A program made the position numbers and the translations under genes. Below the pieces are notes generated by a model, which was not told where the DNA came from, made no database searches, and worked only from the letters and a program-made list of their open reading frames with translations. Source: Alphaproteobacteria bacterium (lineage in GTDB: Bacteria > Pseudomonadota > Alphaproteobacteria > RF32 > CAG-239). Taken from it: 64,000 nucleotides of DNA. The stretch is from the NCBI GenBank assembly GCA_017939155.1, contig JAGAZZ010000021.1:40204-104203 (forward strand), in the 5' to 3' direction. Positions 2,244 to 10,376 of the stretch are shown here, piece by piece (the first letter of the stretch is position 1; each line of letters opens with the position of its first letter).

Positions 2244-3335
<1,092 letters not shown>

Positions 3336-3350
3336 TTTTAGGAGTATAAA

Positions 3351-3695
3351 ATGAGCACGACAGACACAACATTGCTTAAGTTAATTGAAAAAACATTAGA
3401 CGACAACAAAGCAGAAAACATCGTCACCATAGACCTCAAAGGCAAAACCTCAATTGCCAACTATATGGTCATCGCCAGCGGTACATCAAACCGCCATGTT
3501 GCCGCACTTGCTGATAAGCTCAAATACACCTTAAAGCAAAACGGCTATAACACCACTTCAGAAGGTGAAGAAAATGCCAACTGGGTTCTAATCGACGCTT
3601 TTGATGTCATTGTGCACATTTTCTGTCCTGAAGTCCGCGACTTCTACAATCTTGAAAAAATGTGGAACACCGCCGCCGAACTACGCAAAAATTAA
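3351..3695 (+). CDS. rsfS: Ribosome silencing factor RsfS
   Basis: KAENI, ASGTSNRHV, WVLID, VHIF, RDFYNLEKMW. Confidence 0.96.
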   Translation: MSTTDTTLLKLIEKTLDDNKAENIVTIDLKGKTSIANYMVIASGTSNRHVAALADKLKYTLKQNGYNTTSEGEENANWVLIDAFDVIVHIFCPEVRDFYNLEKMWNTAAELRKN

Positions 3696-3784
3696 GTTTA
3701 TTATCGACAAGCTCAAAAAAAACTTGATTTATTATTTTTTAGCGTGTATCAAGAACAGCGTAATCAAAAAACGATTACACAAAT

Positions 3785-3860
3785 AGGGGTATAGCTCAGT
3801 TGGTAGAGCACCGGTCTCCAAAACCGGGTGTCGTGAGTTCGAATCTTACTGCCCCTGCCA
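3785..3860 (+). tRNA. trpT: tRNA-Trp(CCA)
   Basis: 76-nt cloverleaf AGGGGTATAGCTCAGTTGGTAGAGCACCGGTCTCCAAAACCGGGTGTCGTGAGTTCGAATCTTACTGCCCCTGCCA; anticodon CCA; encoded CCA end. Confidence 0.97.
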
Positions 3861-4211
3861 CTAAAAAAGCCACCTTCAAGGTGGTTTTTTTAATGGCATT
3901 TAGGGACAGTTGATGAGAACTCACGAAGAAGTGAGTTCGACCAGGAGGATAAGGCGGACGGAAGAACGCCGGTCAGCATAGCTGATATCCGACGCAGCGG
4001 CGAAGCAAAGTGTAGCCAATCTTACTACCCCTGCCAATAAAGAAGTCCGCTTTATGCGGGCTTTTTTGTTGGCATTTAGGGGAAGTTGATGAGAACTCAC
4101 GAAAAAGTGAGTTCGACAAGGAGGATAAGGCAGACGGAAGTATGCCGGTCAGCATAGCTGATATCCGACGCAGCGGCGTAGCAAAGCGTAGCCAATCGTC
4201 TGCCCCTGCCA
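3861..4211 (+). repeat. Two tandem ~176-bp tRNA-linked (rtT-like) repeats, each ending in a copy of the tRNA-Trp 3' end
   Basis: Units 3861-4036 and 4037-4211 are near-identical after their terminators. Each ends in aatc..ct(a/g)cccctgcca. A partial third unit lies at ~7541-7599. Confidence 0.9.
3863..3891 (+). terminator. Intrinsic terminator after tRNA-Trp
   Basis: aaaaaagccacc-ttcaa-ggtggttttttt. Confidence 0.85.
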
Positions 4212-4251
4212 CTCAAGATAAGCCGTCCGAAAGGGCGGTTTTTTCTTTATA

Positions 4252-4264
4252 AATCAATAACTTA
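4252..4264 (+). promoter_or_regulatory. IHF-binding consensus site
   Basis: AATCAATAACTTA matches WATCAANNNNTTR; identical copy at 5214-5226. Confidence 0.7.
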
Positions 4265-4480
4265 ATCGAGTCCGTGTGAGGCACTGCCATCAGAGCCATT
4301 TTTGGGTGGTTACACGGACTATCCCAGATGAAATCCTTTGTTTTACAAGCATTTAATGCGGTTTGAATCCTATCGGGTTTCGGGAAAAGTGAATTTGTCG
4401 ATTTGGGGATTTTTATAAAAGAAAAGCCCTCACAGCAATAAGTTGTGAGGGTTTGAGGATAGAATACATAAATCTGAATT

Positions 4481-5050
4481 TTAAGGTTTTTGGCTTACAC
4501 TATCGGTGTCTATACCTTTCCAATAACAGTTTACCGTGTGGGTAACATCGGTTGCAGATGTAATCCGAAGATTTTTTCCATTAAATTCAGCACATACTGG
4601 CATTCCGATAATTTCACTCAAAGATTTCATTTCTTTCACAACATCAGAAATCTCCGAACCGGAAGACGGCTCAACAATCACTTCACGGAAGCATTCACCT
4701 ATTCGGAACGGCGTGTAGAATTCTTTCATTTTTTCGATGATTAGCTTTGGCTCTATATTATCATATCCTAGAAAGTATCCTGATGTACAATGTGCTTGAA
4801 AAGAATCAAAAAGACACATGCTGTGCATAGTATTGCTGGTAAAGACCACAAACTTGTTGTTTTTACCAATCGCAATCAACTCTACATCCAAGGCGCTAAC
4901 ACCGGAGTGGTGGGCAACAGTCGCGACAATATCCGAGGTTACAAGGAAAAATGTTTCCCAATCTGAGTAATTTTCCTGAATTCTTGCGATAACAAATTGA
5001 TTGCTAAAATCAAGAGTGACATTTACATTGTTAATTTTAGTTGTTTTCAT
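4481..5050 (-). CDS. Hypothetical protein (cargo of cassette 1)
   Basis: 189-aa ORF; its C-terminal ~60 aa are similar to the 69-aa ORF at 7728..7937; hairpin terminator at ~4423-4453. Confidence 0.75.
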   Translation of the reverse strand: MKTTKINNVNVTLDFSNQFVIARIQENYSDWETFFLVTSDIVATVAHHSGVSALDVELIAIGKNNKFVVFTSNTMHSMCLFDSFQAHCTSGYFLGYDNIEPKLIIEKMKEFYTPFRIGECFREVIVEPSSGSEISDVVKEMKSLSEIIGMPVCAEFNGKNLRITSATDVTHTVNCYWKGIDTDSVSQKP

Positions 5051-5173
5051 AATTTGTAGTATTTTAATAGTTAAACATAATTGTATAATTTTTTTGTATG
5101 ATATTGTTTTTTTTTGAAAAGTAAAGGATTTATTACGGTGAATAGTCTGTGGATTGCCCTATGCGCCCTGCCA

Positions 5174-5736
5174 CTCAAGATAAAGGCGCTGGAAAGCGTC
5201 TTTTTTTATTATAAATCAATAACTTAACTGAGTCCGCGTGAGCCGTGCCAAATGAGGCTGTTTTTGGATAGTTATACGGACTAATATTTTTGAGAGTCCT
5301 TGTTTTTCAAAGTATTAAGCTGTTGGGAGAAATTTTAGCATTTGGGAATTTATAAAAGAAAACCCTTGAAACGAGATGTTTCAAGGGAAAGAAAATAAGA
5401 AATTGCGGCTTCCATGCAAATCAAGTATTCTTTTTTATGATTACCTAATATCAATCTTGCTCTTTTGATTGTCACTTCCAACAATTAAGACCTCAATACA
5501 ATTCGTCTAGAGCCTCTTTATGCTTTTTCGAAATTAATCCGACGGACTTGCCAAACCTTTTTGAGGGTGGAGTTAATGAATTGTTTGATTAACAAGAGAG
5601 ATTGGAGTAATCTATATATGTTTATATGATAATATCTTAGTAATTAATTTGTATGTATCTTTTACACCAAGACAGACTTAAAAGTCAATGTTTATTTAGA
5701 GCAACTAGTCCGAGGATTGCACTATGTGCCCTGCCA
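5174..5736. mobile_element. Putative mini integrative element (cassette 2) with decayed or non-coding cargo
   Basis: First ~200 bp homologous to 4212-4430. Ends with tagtccgaggattgcactatgtgccctgcca, like the end of cassette 1. No ORF of 60 aa or more inside. Confidence 0.55.
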
Positions 5737-5835
5737 CTAACGATGATTTATTTTTGTTCAATCGATTAAACACACTAAGAAAACAGCTTGTAAAACAAAC
5801 CTCGTAACAACACCCACAAAAAACAAAAAATTATT

Positions 5836-7374
5836 TTATTTCAGATTGTTGGCAATAGCATCCAATGAATTAAGAAAAGAATCTTGTTGAAGACTGTTAT
5901 CCTCATACATAAAATCGTCATCATCGGTGTCAATATCGTCAACTCCAATACTATCGCTCTCTAAATCGAGCTCATCAAAATCAGAATCTATTTCTGCTTT
6001 ATTTCTAATCATTTTCATTAATGCAGCGTTAAACTCCTCTTTGGTCAGGCAATCAAACCGTTGTTTAGACATTTGGATGTATCTCTCTTCTTCCATTGCA
6101 AGTTCTTCGGCAGATAGTTCTCTATTTTCTTTTTGAGCGTCTGTTTTTAACACATTTATATATTCTTCTTTACTGATGCAGTTGTCTTTATTGGCATCAT
6201 ATTCAGAAAACATTTCCGCAGAATCCGCTGAAACGAGAATTGTCTTTAGCAAATTTTCCATAAATATTTCATATTTTTGTTTGAAAGTCTGACGGTTGAC
6301 AGGTGGTTGTTCTAACGCTTCATCTAACAGTTTACGCATTATTTGAATAACAAATTTTTTTAGTTCATCTCCATTCAGTTGATTATCGTGATTAATATCA
6401 TGCTCATCAAAAAGTTCAAAAGCAAGCTGTTCTTGTTGTTCGGTTATTTCTGGAATGGCGGCAATATCTTTTTTGGTAATGATAGCGTCGTAAGGAAGTT
6501 CATCAAACATATTACCTAAATCTTCTTCCATCACGCGAAATGCCGGGGCTGTCATATTTTTCATTATTCTTTTCTTATGAGCATCAGAATTGTATGAGGG
6601 GCTTTCGCCATTTGCGATATTTTTAAACTCGGAAGACAAATCATTCAATGTATCAAACAAACCATCAACCATCTCTGTACCTGCTTTATAGTATTTATCT
6701 TCTTTTATGCCTGCAATATATTCCTCTTTGGTCAGGCAATCAGGATTTTTCTTGGAAAATGTATCAAAAGCTTCTTCATCTACCATATCTTCACGAGTCA
6801 GACAATTATCGTGGTCAAAATCCGCATCGTCATACGAAGCTTCGAGCAGAGCATCCCTTATTTTTATAGTTTGTTCACGCATATAGTTCATCATAAGAGA
6901 AGGGTCATCTTTGAATTTTTCGTCCATATCCATCATTTCAAACATCATATTAGCCTTAGCCTCAGCGGTTTCAATTGAGACTTTTAGACCTTTGAGATTG
7001 AGCAGATAATTCTCGAATTCTTCTTTAGTAAGACAATCCGGAACGTGCGCAATGGTTTTGAACAATTTGGGAGCGCTTTTTTGCAAAAAAATCGTTTGAA
7101 ATTCGCTGACAGAAAGACAATTATCTTTATTGCTGTTTGCCATGTCAAAAACAGCGGCGGCTGAGTTCTTTACTTTTTGTGTTATATCGGCACGCATTTT
7201 CTTTTTTTCTTGTTCAAATTTGGCAAGAGCTTCTTGTTGCTTTTGTTTTCTCTCTTGTTCCCATTGAACTTTCATTTTTTCAAAGTCATAATCCGGCGGA
7301 GTTGTATTTTGGCTATAGACAGTAAAGCTAAAAAAGAAGCTACATACAAAGAGAAATAAAATAGATTTTTTCAT
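5836..7374 (-). CDS. Secreted multi-EF-hand protein with acidic tail
   Basis: Signal peptide from MKKSILFL (ATG 7374); EF-hand-like loops NSNKDNCLSVSE, DFDHDNCLTRED, DINHDNQLNGDE and DANKDNCISKEE. Confidence 0.8.
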   Translation of the reverse strand: MKKSILFLFVCSFFFSFTVYSQNTTPPDYDFEKMKVQWEQERKQKQQEALAKFEQEKKKMRADITQKVKNSAAAVFDMANSNKDNCLSVSEFQTIFLQKSAPKLFKTIAHVPDCLTKEEFENYLLNLKGLKVSIETAEAKANMMFEMMDMDEKFKDDPSLMMNYMREQTIKIRDALLEASYDDADFDHDNCLTREDMVDEEAFDTFSKKNPDCLTKEEYIAGIKEDKYYKAGTEMVDGLFDTLNDLSSEFKNIANGESPSYNSDAHKKRIMKNMTAPAFRVMEEDLGNMFDELPYDAIITKKDIAAIPEITEQQEQLAFELFDEHDINHDNQLNGDELKKFVIQIMRKLLDEALEQPPVNRQTFKQKYEIFMENLLKTILVSADSAEMFSEYDANKDNCISKEEYINVLKTDAQKENRELSAEELAMEEERYIQMSKQRFDCLTKEEFNAALMKMIRNKAEIDSDFDELDLESDSIGVDDIDTDDDDFMYEDNSLQQDSFLNSLDAIANNLK

Positions 7375-7540
7375 AGTAATCCTAAAATAAATGTTATTTC
7401 CCAATTTAGGCACGACTTATTTTAAGATATGGTTAACATCAAACTATTTTTGCGAACCGAACGGATAATATAGTTTAAGGTTAGTTGTTCACGCAAAGCA
7501 CAATTAGGAGAATAAGACAAACAGCAAAGCGTCAATCAGC

Positions 7541-7599
7541 TATCCGACGCAGCGGCAGAGCCAATCTTACTGCCCCTACCATCAAAGAAGTCCGCTTTA
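7541..7599 (+). repeat. Partial tRNA-linked repeat unit with tRNA-Trp 3'-end copy
   Basis: tatccgacgcagcggc..agccaatcttactgcccctacca.caaagaagtccgcttta matches 3986-4054. Confidence 0.85.
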
Positions 7600-7600
7600 C

Positions 7601-7630
7601 TGAACTGTCCCCAAAAAGTTGAACAGTTCA
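7601..7630. repeat. ~30-bp IS3-end-like palindromic mini-element in a terminator loop
   Basis: TGAACTGTCCCCAAAAAGTTGAACAGTTCA; related copies at 10410-10441, 15724-15752 and 60554-60582. Confidence 0.55.
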
Positions 7631-7727
7631 TTTTACAGGCTCTTTGCAAATTTGAAGAATCTTATAAAAAAATCCCTCACAACATCAAATTGTAAGGGAT
7701 TTTTTAAATACGGCAACAAAGTTTTCT

Positions 7728-7937
7728 TCAAGACTGTTTGCGCCCCACTCTCTTCCAAAACTCCACCACTTTATATGCCGGAGTAGTAGATGTAATTTGA
7801 ATTGTCTTTCCTTTAAAATTGACATATACAGGCTTTCCGATAATCTCGATTAAAGATTTTATTTCTTGGACAGCATCAAAAGAACCCTCAGAAAGGTCAA
7901 TAACAATTTTACGAAGACATTTGAATTCTTTTTCCAT
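7728..7937 (-). CDS. Small hypothetical protein, paralog of the C-terminal domain of 4481..5050
   Basis: KCLRKIVIDLSEGS..EIKSLIEIIGKPV..F.GK...ITS.T aligns with ECFREVIVEPSSGS..EMKSLSEIIGMPV..F.GK...ITS.T. Confidence 0.75.
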   Translation of the reverse strand: MEKEFKCLRKIVIDLSEGSFDAVQEIKSLIEIIGKPVYVNFKGKTIQITSTTPAYKVVEFWKRVGRKQS

Positions 7938-7959
7938 AATAATTATTTTTTTATTACAC

Positions 7960-8817
7960 CTACGCTTTTACATTATTCAAAATATAAAGGCGCATTAACC
8001 TTTTTGCATACGGAAGCACTAACATTTTAAGAAGCGTTTTGGGATAAATCTTTACCTTCGATAAAATAAGCACTTCCAACAATTCCTTTGTGTGCGGCAA
8101 TTTAAACAGCTTTAGTTGCCCCGCTTTAGACAGCCCATGTTTTGAGATATACTTTTTCAACTCATCTTTGGTTAATGGCATCTCAAGCAATTTCAGCTCT
8201 GGCTCCTCAGAAATCCCATAGCGAACAGCATATTCAAACACAAACTCTTTTGCGTATGGCTGCTCAAACATCTTGAGTTCAACAACATAAGCAAAACGCC
8301 TGTACTCGATATACCTTTTCACCATCTCACAAGCATTAGGCAACTCAAACAGCTTAAGTTGCGCCTCTATGCAAAAATTTCGTTCACACAGATACCAAGT
8401 CATCACTTGCAACGCATTCGGCAATTCAAGCATTTTAAGCTGAACAGCCTCACTACAGACCCATTCTGAAAAATAAAAATCATGCAACTCACTAAAATCA
8501 GGAAGCGACAACAATTTCAACACAGCCTCATCACAAAGAGGATGTTCTGAAATATAAACCCTCACCAATTGCTCTGCATTAGACAACATAAAGAAAGTCA
8601 GTTGCAACTTTTCTGAGAATGTGACTTCCTTTAGCAAGGACTTTGCATAGGGCTGCTCAAGCAGTTTAATCTTAGCTCGGTCACAAAGTTCCCAACAAGA
8701 TAAATAAACACGCAACAACTCTTTTGCATCCGGCAAATCAAACAAACGCATTTGGTCTTCTTCATCTAAAGATGTTCCACACCGAACACGCGACCTAAGA
8801 ATAAATTTTTCAAACAT
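7960..8817 (-). CDS. Helical tandem-repeat protein (~27-aa repeats)
   Basis: About 10 repeats of (Q/E)LKL(F/L)ELPxAxELxxxY. Confidence 0.8.
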   Translation of the reverse strand: MFEKFILRSRVRCGTSLDEEDQMRLFDLPDAKELLRVYLSCWELCDRAKIKLLEQPYAKSLLKEVTFSEKLQLTFFMLSNAEQLVRVYISEHPLCDEAVLKLLSLPDFSELHDFYFSEWVCSEAVQLKMLELPNALQVMTWYLCERNFCIEAQLKLFELPNACEMVKRYIEYRRFAYVVELKMFEQPYAKEFVFEYAVRYGISEEPELKLLEMPLTKDELKKYISKHGLSKAGQLKLFKLPHTKELLEVLILSKVKIYPKTLLKMLVLPYAKRLMRLYILNNVKA

Positions 8818-8896
8818 AATAACAAAGATTTAAATTAATAATACATTTTCAATCTTTGCATATCATAAAATTAAGCTTATTGCAATAACTTTTTTT

Positions 8897-9427
8897 CTAA
8901 GATATTTTTGTGATATATTGCGGTAAAATAACCCCTCCTTTGATAACAACCAAGTAATACGGCACAACCGAAAAACGCAATCCTAATTTTTCATCACAAA
9001 CCGACCAGTCCACGGGAGTTGTATCAATATCATAAATCGAAGCCAATTTAACCAACCGCTCATCAACATCTTGCGGTAAATTTTTATCCAAATCTGGACG
9101 GATTGCAGGGCTAACATAAACAGCGTCAATCCACCCGTCTTTCTCCAAAGCCTCCAAATCAATTGAAAATAAATCCGCATTCTCAATAAACGGCTTAAAC
9201 ATATTAACACTTTTATCTGTCCATTGTATCGGCTCAGAAAATCCGCGTATGGCGCGGCTCCTCCCCTCAAAACACCTCTCAAACCACCTGACCACCCCTT
9301 CGTGTGTCGTTTCACCACCGCTACGCTTGTAATAATAGCGTAAATCCGCCTTAGGATTTTTAGCAAATGATAAAATCCCCTCGCTTAACGCATTATTGCC
9401 CTTTTCAATATAATGATACAATTTCAT
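8897..9427 (-). CDS. Hypothetical protein
   Basis: 176-aa ORF with GGAG SD; N-terminus LYHY...GILS. Confidence 0.75.
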   Translation of the reverse strand: MKLYHYIEKGNNALSEGILSFAKNPKADLRYYYKRSGGETTHEGVVRWFERCFEGRSRAIRGFSEPIQWTDKSVNMFKPFIENADLFSIDLEALEKDGWIDAVYVSPAIRPDLDKNLPQDVDERLVKLASIYDIDTTPVDWSVCDEKLGLRFSVVPYYLVVIKGGVILPQYITKIS

Positions 9428-9639
9428 ATAAAATCTCCCTATTTTGCCAATAAAAAAATTTTATCTCAAAAATTTTCTCAGTCAAGAGATTATCCTGCAA
9501 AGCAAAAATATAGTTATTGACATCCAAAAAATAATTTAATATGTTGATACCCAACGAGATAGAAAGCATTAAAAATTTACTCCCGTAAACAAACAATGTT
9601 ATCTATCGATTTAATCAATCTTTTTGAAATGGTATAGCT

Positions 9640-9831
9640 ATGGGAAACACAAGTCCGATACAATTTTTTAGGCAAGTAAAGCAAGAAGTAAAAAAAGTTA
9701 CTTGGCCTTCCAAAAAAGAAGTCATTAACGCTACAAGAATGGTCATCGTTGTTGTTGCGATTGCTTCAATATTCTTCTTTTTCGTTGATATGTTCTTTGC
9801 GGCCATTGTTAGTGCCATCTTTAAATATTAG
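9640..9831 (+). CDS. secE: Preprotein translocase subunit SecE
   Basis: FFRQVKQEVKKVTWPSKKE followed by a TM helix; directly upstream of nusG. Confidence 0.95.
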   Translation: MGNTSPIQFFRQVKQEVKKVTWPSKKEVINATRMVIVVVAIASIFFFFVDMFFAAIVSAIFKY

Positions 9832-9842
9832 GAGTTTATCCC

Positions 9843-10376
9843 ATGACTGCTCGTTGGTATGTTGTTAACGTATATTCCGGTTCGGAAAAAAAGGTTGCTG
9901 AGTCAATCCGTGAACAAGCCGTTTTGAAAAAAATGGATGATAAGATTTTAGAAGTGTTGGTTCCGACCGAACAAGTCGTTGAAGTAAAAAAAGGTGAAAA
10001 GGTAAACGCTGAACACAAGTTTTTCCCCGGTTACATCTTAATCAAAATGGAAATGAACGATGATACTTGGCACATTGTAAAAGATACGCCTCGCGTCAGC
10101 GGCTTCCTTGGTAGCCATAACAAACCGCAAGCTATCAGCGAAAGAGAAGTAAAGCGCATTATGGAGCAAATCGAAGAAGGGATTGAACGTCCGCAAACTC
10201 AAGTTTACTTTGAAGTTGGTGAGCAGATTCGCGTCATAGATGGTCCGTTTGCTTCCTTTATCGGCGTGGTCGAAGAAATTGACACCGAAAAATCTCGCTT
10301 AAAAGTTTCTGTTTCGATTTTCGGTCGTTACACTCCGGTAGAGTTGGAATTTAATCAAGTCGAGAAAATCGCTTAA
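9843..10376 (+). CDS. nusG: Transcription termination/antitermination factor NusG
   Basis: WYVVNVYSGSE, FFPGY, KOW motif GPFASF.G. Confidence 0.98.
   Translation: MTARWYVVNVYSGSEKKVAESIREQAVLKKMDDKILEVLVPTEQVVEVKKGEKVNAEHKFFPGYILIKMEMNDDTWHIVKDTPRVSGFLGSHNKPQAISEREVKRIMEQIEEGIERPQTQVYFEVGEQIRVIDGPFASFIGVVEEIDTEKSRLKVSVSIFGRYTPVELEFNQVEKIA

Follow-up and report, generated by a model that had tools for sequence, protein, structure and literature searches.

What lies between tRNA-Trp and secE in this gut alphaproteobacterium, and how did it get there? The window, i.e., the whole 64,000-nt stretch of DNA analysed here, corresponds to positions 40204-104203 of contig C10 in its own assembly, G000 (1.78 Mb in 58 contigs, 100% complete by marker genes), and the interval under study runs from tRNA-Trp (CCA anticodon; 3785-3860, + strand; located with ARAGORN, 68 bits against the Rfam tRNA model) to secE (9642-9833, + strand; assigned from its sequence and from secE matches in relatives). 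It contains 5.8 kb without housekeeping genes, within which two compact units are bounded by copies of the 3' end of the tRNA. With moderate confidence, we interpret these units as recombinase-free, cis-mobilizable cassettes at tRNA 3' ends on which a site-specific recombinase, probably a tyrosine recombinase, acts in trans. The tRNA-Trp 3' end, CCCCTGCCA, is the primary attachment core, and secE with nusG is, on sequence grounds, the conserved far border of the variable interval.

The core, CCCTGCCA, occurs 7 times in the window versus 1.54 expected, and none of 100 shuffled sequences contained 7 or more copies. Five of the seven are in the array, ending at 3860 (the true end of tRNA-Trp), 4036, 4211, 5173, and 5736. 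The last three come with conserved arms and bound cassette 1 (962 bp, 4212-5173), which is also found elsewhere in metagenome runs X4 and X5, and cassette 2 (563 bp, 5174-5736). A preliminary description of the locus, made from the letters of the window, had reported these three core copies and two discrete units with B-O-P'/P-O-P'/P-O-B'-like junctions, and both points are borne out. It had also taken the first core for the tRNA 3' end; since two 176-bp tandem units lie between the tRNA and 4211, this copy is instead the tail of the second of two structured elements, termed U and described below. Nor does the third junction resume the native tRNA flank, with which the sequence after 5736 has only "cta" and an A/T-rich run in common, and it is not the end of the inserted DNA, as accessory DNA continues for a further 3.9 kb up to secE. 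A 19-nt variant of the tRNA tail with one mismatch ends at 7581 and marks an older junction. The cassettes carry direct repeats of the 3' part of the tRNA (8-9 bp here, up to 17 bp in other members of the family), and tRNA-Trp itself is intact.

What the two cassettes share is their ends. Over 120 nt, the left arms that follow 4211 and 5173 agree at 78% of positions (E = 4e-18 in a search of the whole 1.78-Mb genome), and each has a + strand terminator (4220-4241 and 5182-5203), an identical AAATCAATAACTTAA (4251-4265 and 5213-5227), which we take to fit the consensus of integration host factor (IHF), and a 9-bp inverted repeat, AGTCCG(T/C)GT ... A(C/T)ACGGACT, with halves 34 bp apart (4269-4320 and 5231-5282). 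In cassette 1, this P'-like arm contains CTCAAGATAA and extends over 4212-4426 (+ strand), an alignment of 44 arms from the wider family showing a conserved block to ~4400; in cassette 2, it occupies 5174-5362 (+ strand), and its inverted repeat has one uncompensated change. On the right side, the 65 nt preceding 5173 and 5736 are 75% identical (family D5), and a 30-bp, P-like right arm ends in the core in both, at 5144-5173 (+ strand; AGTCTGTGGATTGCCCTATGCGCCCTGCCA) and at 5707-5736 (+ strand). Both common arms had been described before, along with a separate site, tataaaagaaaa, that proves to be the T-run of the minus-strand cargo terminator. The inverted repeat sits 58-109 nt inside the cassette, the boundary of which is the tRNA-tail core. 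Each cassette has three copies of the motif AGTCCGTG, which resembles the T-arm sequence GAGTTCGAA; the copies closest to each cassette end are in direct orientation, and we read the AGTYCG/AGTCCGTG motifs as predicted protein-binding sites. A transposon or miniature inverted-repeat transposable element was considered and rejected, the ends CTCAAGAT... and ...CCTATGCG not being inverted copies of each other.

Between their arms, cassettes 1 and 2 have nothing in common. Cassette 1 carries one open reading frame (ORF; 4481-5050, - strand) for a 189-aa protein that has no Pfam or NCBIfam family and for which 18 homologues, none of them named, were found at 50-100% identity; its cargo terminator hairpin was recognised by eye at ~4427-4455. 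Cassette 2 contains no ORF above 44 aa, and a terminator is predicted on its - strand (5387-5363). Thus, neither cassette carries an integrase, excisionase, or transfer gene, and the earlier observation that both lack a recombinase is upheld. The accompanying view of each unit as promoter, gene, and terminator fails for cassette 2, which has a minus-strand terminator and lacks an evident gene. As a side observation, approximately 35 nt upstream of the start of the cassette 1 ORF (5046-5082) have counterparts, 85-92% identical, in G000 at C45:20754-20792 and at unrelated loci of several relatives; this stretch may be a shared 5' leader or N-terminus.

The core copies ending at 4036 and 4211 belong to two tandem units of 176 bp that are 87-88% identical. 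Unit a (3861-4036, + strand; 145.9 bits with covariance model R1, and consensus fold) consists of a terminator (~3866-3889) and a U element (from 3893) ending in a copy of the tRNA-Trp tail, and unit b (4037-4211, + strand; 140.9 bits with R1) of a terminator and a second U (~4069-4213), the tail of which (4194-4211) holds the core of the first junction. A decayed third U lies at 7468-7583 (+ strand; 27.7 bits with R1), where the tail variant ending at 7581 is located. U is a structured element of ~145 nt that immediately follows a tRNA plus terminator. At the 5' side it has a diverged reverse complement of the 3' third of its own tRNA; in the middle, a direct copy of the 5' strand of the T-stem plus TTCGA is followed by a conserved insert of ~88 nt with two covarying hairpins; and its end is an exact copy of the tRNA from approximately position 58 to CCA. 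G000 has nine full copies at eight tRNAs, each matching its own tRNA (the other contigs being C39, C30, C52, C13, C40, C44, and C46). RNAalifold on 16 copies gave 23 pairs, 12 of them with compensatory changes. U has no Rfam match, and a scan of 3000-9000 at E values up to 1 returned the tRNA as the sole Rfam match. The covariance model found matches in 6 of 150 other alphaproteobacterial genera sampled, and all 7 matches inspected adjoin a tRNA with a matching tail. Both U tails and the tRNA end serve as landing sites for cassettes. Three other identities for U were tried and rejected: a hammerhead-like motif (not conserved across copies), a guide RNA of a transposon nuclease (no such gene in G000, where the search for the TnpB-type nuclease domain PF07282 was negative), and the end of an insertion sequence (no similarity).

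We searched 60 relatives for 3861-5760, scoring five candidates per genome, and parts of this segment were matched in 32 of the 35 genomes of the genus. The spacer from tRNA-Trp to secE measures from ~260 bp to 12.5 kb in 35 related species and contains 0 to 3 cassettes with these arms, placed after the tRNA or after a U tail. In G034, only ~260 nt separate tRNA-Trp from secE, and the terminator there matches the start of arm 1 (98% over 48 nt). The spacer of G021 has two U units only, G003 has the tRNA followed by U, a cassette, and another U, G025 has U and then two cassettes, G010 has three tandem cassettes, and G029 extends to 12.5 kb. A single 724-bp cassette is present in G024, exactly between two copies of CCCCTGCCA and with only 9 bp in common with its target, while in G005 the tRNA is joined straight to the DNA downstream of this cassette (G005 68-397 versus G024 792-1121, 95.8%). 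Cassette number, order, site, and cargo all differ among relatives, in keeping with the variable array that had been proposed.

For a comparison at strain level, Logan contigs of four gut-metagenome runs (X2 to X5) were aligned with 3300-9900, and window parts left uncovered in any run were not counted as evidence. Cassette 1 is present in X4 and X5 at 96-97% identity, in other array positions. One contig of X5, which comes from another study and is ~97% identical, consists of a U tail and arm start, ~4.6 kb of other DNA, and cassette 1 (4242-5173); in this run, a U unit follows the core at 5173, where the window has cassette 2. In a second X5 contig, window positions 4041 and 9481 are linked through 1312 letters of other sequence. 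Cassette 1 of X4 is succeeded by a variant right arm, after which comes the flank found behind the true tRNA in the window. In both runs, a U unit takes the place that cassette 2 has in the window. X2 and X3 contributed only short window-identical pieces, with no joints. The X4 and X5 arrays therefore place the same cassette at different positions in near-identical strains, with the breaks at the core.

The two cassettes are members of a larger family. A census of non-redundant right arm plus core ends over all loci in hand gave 47, and for 34 of these the left end could be located as well, by a heuristic, with sizes of 485-7935 bp. Look-alike arm loci come from metagenome-assembled genomes (MAGs) of uncultured Alphaproteobacteria. 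Cargo is unrelated between cassettes and lies on either strand; it includes an HD-domain protein, C5 DNA methylases, small membrane proteins, and (both by eye) NUDIX-like and TfoX-like proteins. A 7.5-kb cassette at tRNA-Gln in G023 (L034 6900-14700) holds a defence cluster, with a GmrSD-like gene split in two ORFs, a type I/IIG methylase, an S subunit, and a DndB-like gene.

The family is not confined to tRNA-Trp. In G023, G015, and G031, this arm is found behind tRNA-Gln(ttg), and the right arm there closes with ..TCCAGCCA, in agreement with the tail of tRNA-Gln, CCCCAGCCA; two tandem junctions have a Tyr-type tail (..CCTCCACCA) and others have Pro-type tails, the core being matched each time. 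The core thus varies with the target and the arms stay constant, as expected if the short overlap provides the homology for exchange and recognition resides in the flanking sites. Some right arms retain a 17-nt match to the tRNA-Trp tail (TCTTACTGCCCCTGCCA), and the right arm is therefore a diverged copy of the 3' part of the tRNA, like the attP of tRNA-targeting elements. Motif variants among the 44 aligned arms are uncompensated, with conservation at the level of sequence, which fits protein sites over RNA pairing. A "distal T-arm-like block" considered for the left arm was dropped because its regular expression matched only 5 of the 44 arms. Separately, arm-like modules occur after other tRNAs of G000, on C35 (Gln ctg), C38 (Glu ctc), C30 (Lys ttt), and C19 (Gln ttg), and also at L032 6940-7050. 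All of these modules combine a terminator with an A/T-rich IHF-like stretch and an inverted repeat similar to T-arm sequence, which suggests sister cassette families with other site specificities.

The mechanism that we propose starts from the observed anatomy: a left arm of ~200 bp with a replacement trailer-terminator for the tRNA, an IHF-type bend site, and AGTCCGTGT in two inverted copies; cargo in either orientation; and a 30-bp right arm with the third AGTCCGTG copy and then the diverged tRNA-tail copy ending in the core. A trans-acting site-specific recombinase, most likely a tyrosine integrase binding the T-arm-like AGTYCG motifs, would exchange strands within the 7-9 bp common with the tRNA tail; it might be supplied by the host or by a helper element missing from the assemblies. 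The tandem array would then be built up by successive insertions, each at some core copy, be it the tRNA end, a U tail, or an earlier cassette end, and we infer that such movement may continue at present.

Several observations weigh against this interpretation. The search for a cognate recombinase came up empty: the two PF00589 matches of G000, on other contigs and scoring just under the NCBIfam equivalog cut-offs, are best interpreted as XerD and XerC. Clusters of AGTCCGYG are confined to arm loci, with none beside 20 integrase-centred and 20 small-recombinase loci; the right-arm pattern occurs in 0 viral stretches, and the junction at 5100-5400 is unmatched in PLSDB plasmids and GenBank phages. 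A search for arm plus core, proposed in the preliminary description, succeeded in relatives, with differing cargo, and found no copy of the arm in G000 outside this locus. The counts of motifs in the 44-arm set (both exact 9-mer halves in 35 of 44, the IHF-like site in 42 of 44) are partly circular and inflated, since the arms were gathered by degenerate forms of those motifs, with a pattern requiring both inverted-repeat halves. Arms that are 75-90% identical over 100-200 bp are sufficient for homologous recombination to shuffle cassettes. In pairs such as G024 and G005, insertion and precise deletion are indistinguishable without a rooted tree, and the strain data are assembled contigs, which cannot reveal circles, excision frequency, or absence.

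Besides the XerC/XerD-like pair, G000 encodes five Mpi-family small serine recombinases, two large serine recombinase matches (one with internal stops), one partial Resolvase match, and two Y1 transposases, which nothing connects to the arms. A tyrosine integrase with matching sites, which the preliminary description had suggested looking for, was found neither in G000, 35 relatives, and 43 further arm-bearing loci nor in collections of viruses, phages, and plasmids. The arrays at 32 genome loci, at 11 metagenome loci with cassette-cassette junctions, and at the genus loci examined contain no tyrosine integrase. Likewise, no autonomous element with these arms was found among the genus genomes, the arm loci, or the viral, phage, and plasmid collections; MAGs may lack plasmids and phages, and a helper plasmid or phage may have been lost in MAG binning.

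Individual candidates were rejected one by one. In G022:C19, an integrase near an arm-like module proved to be part of a 21.8-kb island that sits in tRNA-Lys(ttt) and has a 45-nt repeat on the anticodon side, the module being the next feature downstream. The integrase in G034:C47 lies upstream of tRNA-Trp, outside the array. Tyrosine recombinases of 193-208 aa located ~300 bp from tRNA-Thr(tgt) in G023 and G013 have neighbourhoods without AGTCCGTG sites, as has a small tyrosine recombinase of this sort within the 12.5-kb G029 array. Such proteins, of ~193-208 aa and with a catalytic domain only, are seen 0.3-2.6 kb from tRNAs Thr-tgt, Ala, and Gln in several relatives, e.g., at L140 6818-7366 (tRNA-Thr at 7661-7736), L141, L146, and L147; direct and inverted repeats lie between tRNA-Thr and the recombinase gene in L141. 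In addition, G000 has the open frame of a 516-aa large serine recombinase (C45:29176-30732) that adjoins tRNA-Thr(ggt) on the opposite strand and may represent another tRNA-linked element.

It is unlikely that the cassettes are immobile relics, i.e., deletion derivatives of integrase-carrying islands or prophages, with strain differences produced by homologous recombination at the repeats and by exchange of the whole interval via its tRNA and secE flanks. The arm homology just mentioned would serve such recombination. Prophages use tRNA-Trp in this group: the one relevant match in the viral collection, the L128 prophage end, has a ~50-nt 3' fragment of tRNA-Trp followed by a cassette arm (the other five viral-contig matches are chance ones, inside unrelated sequence). 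Islands with 390-420-aa integrases and tRNA fragments are present in the genus, and decayed junctions are found in the window (7581), in G024 (~1170-1220), and in G005 (~483). However, an integrase or a fragment of one stands beside none of the 47 non-redundant cassette ends in the stretches examined, and a constant 30-bp right arm and ~200-bp left arm always abut unrelated cargo, a constancy that random deletions would not produce. Moreover, the integrases observed at tRNA-Lys cross over in the anticodon region, with 45-50-nt repeats, and not in an 8-9-bp 3' core, and the G024 insertion shares just its 9 bp with the target.

Movement of the cassettes by the host alone, through XerC/XerD or one of the five Mpi-family recombinases and with no helper, would make the system a true functional analogue of integrons, and we regard it as improbable. 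In its favour, arrays differ among strains that are 96-97% identical, a genome that is complete by markers has only XerC/XerD-like tyrosine recombinases and serine recombinases, PF00589 is represented in all 36 genus genomes by at least two matches (many with extra 370-430-aa integrases), and Mpi-like genes are present as cargo in or near arrays at 4 of 32 arm loci. These genes have no fixed cassette position, though, and the inverted repeats beside four Mpi-like genes have no AGTCCGTG motif. A genome scan for dif-like sites, a weak test given its degenerate motif, turned up nothing closer than 4-5 mismatches, and no match coincided with a junction. An IHF-type site combined with distant repeated sites is the arm-site layout of integrases and not that of Xer enzymes or invertases. 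The five small serine recombinase genes are at C10:17631-18251 and C10:22730-23326 and on C11, C30, and C32; two Mpi-like recombinases that were scanned matched the NCBIfam Mpi "master DNA invertase" model, one above and one just under its cut-off. Alphaproteobacteria do not usually have such a set of Mpi-family proteins, a possible sign that this gut lineage uses invertible promoters or shufflons.

Divergence after a local tandem duplication, in which case the arms would be tRNA trailer and regulatory region with no role in recombination, is a very improbable explanation: the first 33 nt of arm 1 are indeed the native tRNA-Trp terminator of G034, and the neighbouring U units are tandem duplicates, but cassettes 1 and 2 are alike only in their arms, and these arms recur around cargo of unrelated kinds across dozens of genomes, including sites at other tRNAs.

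How do these cassettes at tRNA ends compare with known systems? The nearest parallel is with streptococcal cis-mobilizable elements (CIMEs), which are attachment site-flanked segments without recombination or transfer genes that are arranged in tandem at one site and are thought to be moved by the integrase of a related element. CIMEs, however, are described as deletion derivatives of a known family of integrative and conjugative elements, for which the helper has been identified and the attachment site is the end of a protein gene, whereas here no helper or integrase was found, units can measure just 0.5-1 kb, attachment is to the 3' end of a tRNA, and several tRNAs are served. Like integron cassettes, the units are small, recombinase-less, often of one gene, and serially arranged at a fixed chromosomal site, with cargo that varies among close relatives. 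Unlike them, they have no attC-type imperfect palindrome at the boundary, the neighbours are rsfS/obgE upstream and secE/nusG downstream with no integrase, both orientations of cargo occur with their own terminators, and there are ~200-bp arms with an IHF-type site and a tRNA-tail core. The term integron-like, used in the preliminary description, can therefore be kept as an analogy only; because a boundary attC and an adjacent integrase are missing, the array is not an integron.

Modules that exploit Xer recombination at dif-like sites (IMEX and dif modules) also lack their own recombinase and form tandem arrays at one site, but they use dif-like XerC/XerD sites, none of which was recognised here in the weak test with a degenerate motif. 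Genomic islands that target tRNAs, among them the tycheposons of Prochlorococcus, integrate at tRNAs and leave partial tRNA repeats, their degenerate remnants accumulate, and successive integrations displace older elements further inward (10.1101/2020.12.28.424599). In all these respects, our cassettes are alike. By contrast, their shared core is confined to the last 8-9 bp of the tRNA 3' end (17 bp at most, in some members), and because they lack an integrase, they are not self-sufficient tRNA islands or tycheposons. Keyword searches of the literature on integrase-less tRNA cassettes and on tRNA-linked structured elements found no description of the system, which is not proof that it is unpublished.

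Taken further, the data allow for a tRNA-anchored, integron-like system in uncultured gut Alphaproteobacteria. Recombinase-free cassettes with ~200-bp arms would be captured, stacked, and reshuffled at several tRNAs by an enzyme encoded elsewhere, in the host or a helper, that reads T-arm-like motifs and needs few-base homology, with U multiplying the landing sites and with defence systems among the cargo; we advance this wider picture tentatively, as a possibility. If the cassettes are active, the small genomes of uncultured gut Alphaproteobacteria could exchange single genes and defence systems while the array itself carries no integrase, plasmid, or prophage. The conserved arms offer a simple sequence handle by which such cargo can be located in metagenomes. 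The use of several tRNAs with a matched core suggests that the target might be switched by swapping a few bases, and a retargetable recombination system would be of interest for genome engineering. U, for its part, is a covarying structure without an Rfam family that is tied to tRNA 3' ends in several alphaproteobacterial families.

The remaining features of the locus are as follows. Upstream of tRNA-Trp are obgE (2265-3335) and rsfS (3351-3695), and secE is followed by nusG (9843-10376, + strand; NusG Pfam match). G000 also carries a permuted transfer-messenger RNA (tmRNA). The accessory DNA beyond cassette 2 includes a gene for a 525-aa EF-hand protein (5836-7413, - strand; Pfam EF-hand_7 and EF-hand_1), in which blocks resembling D-N-C-L-T-K-E-E-F are repeated, and a gene for a 285-aa protein (7960-8817, - strand) with repeats of ~27 aa and no Pfam family. 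Between these two lies a 69-aa fragment (7728-7937, - strand) that is paralogous to the C-terminus of the cassette 1 protein, with 75% DNA identity over 99 nt (family D3).

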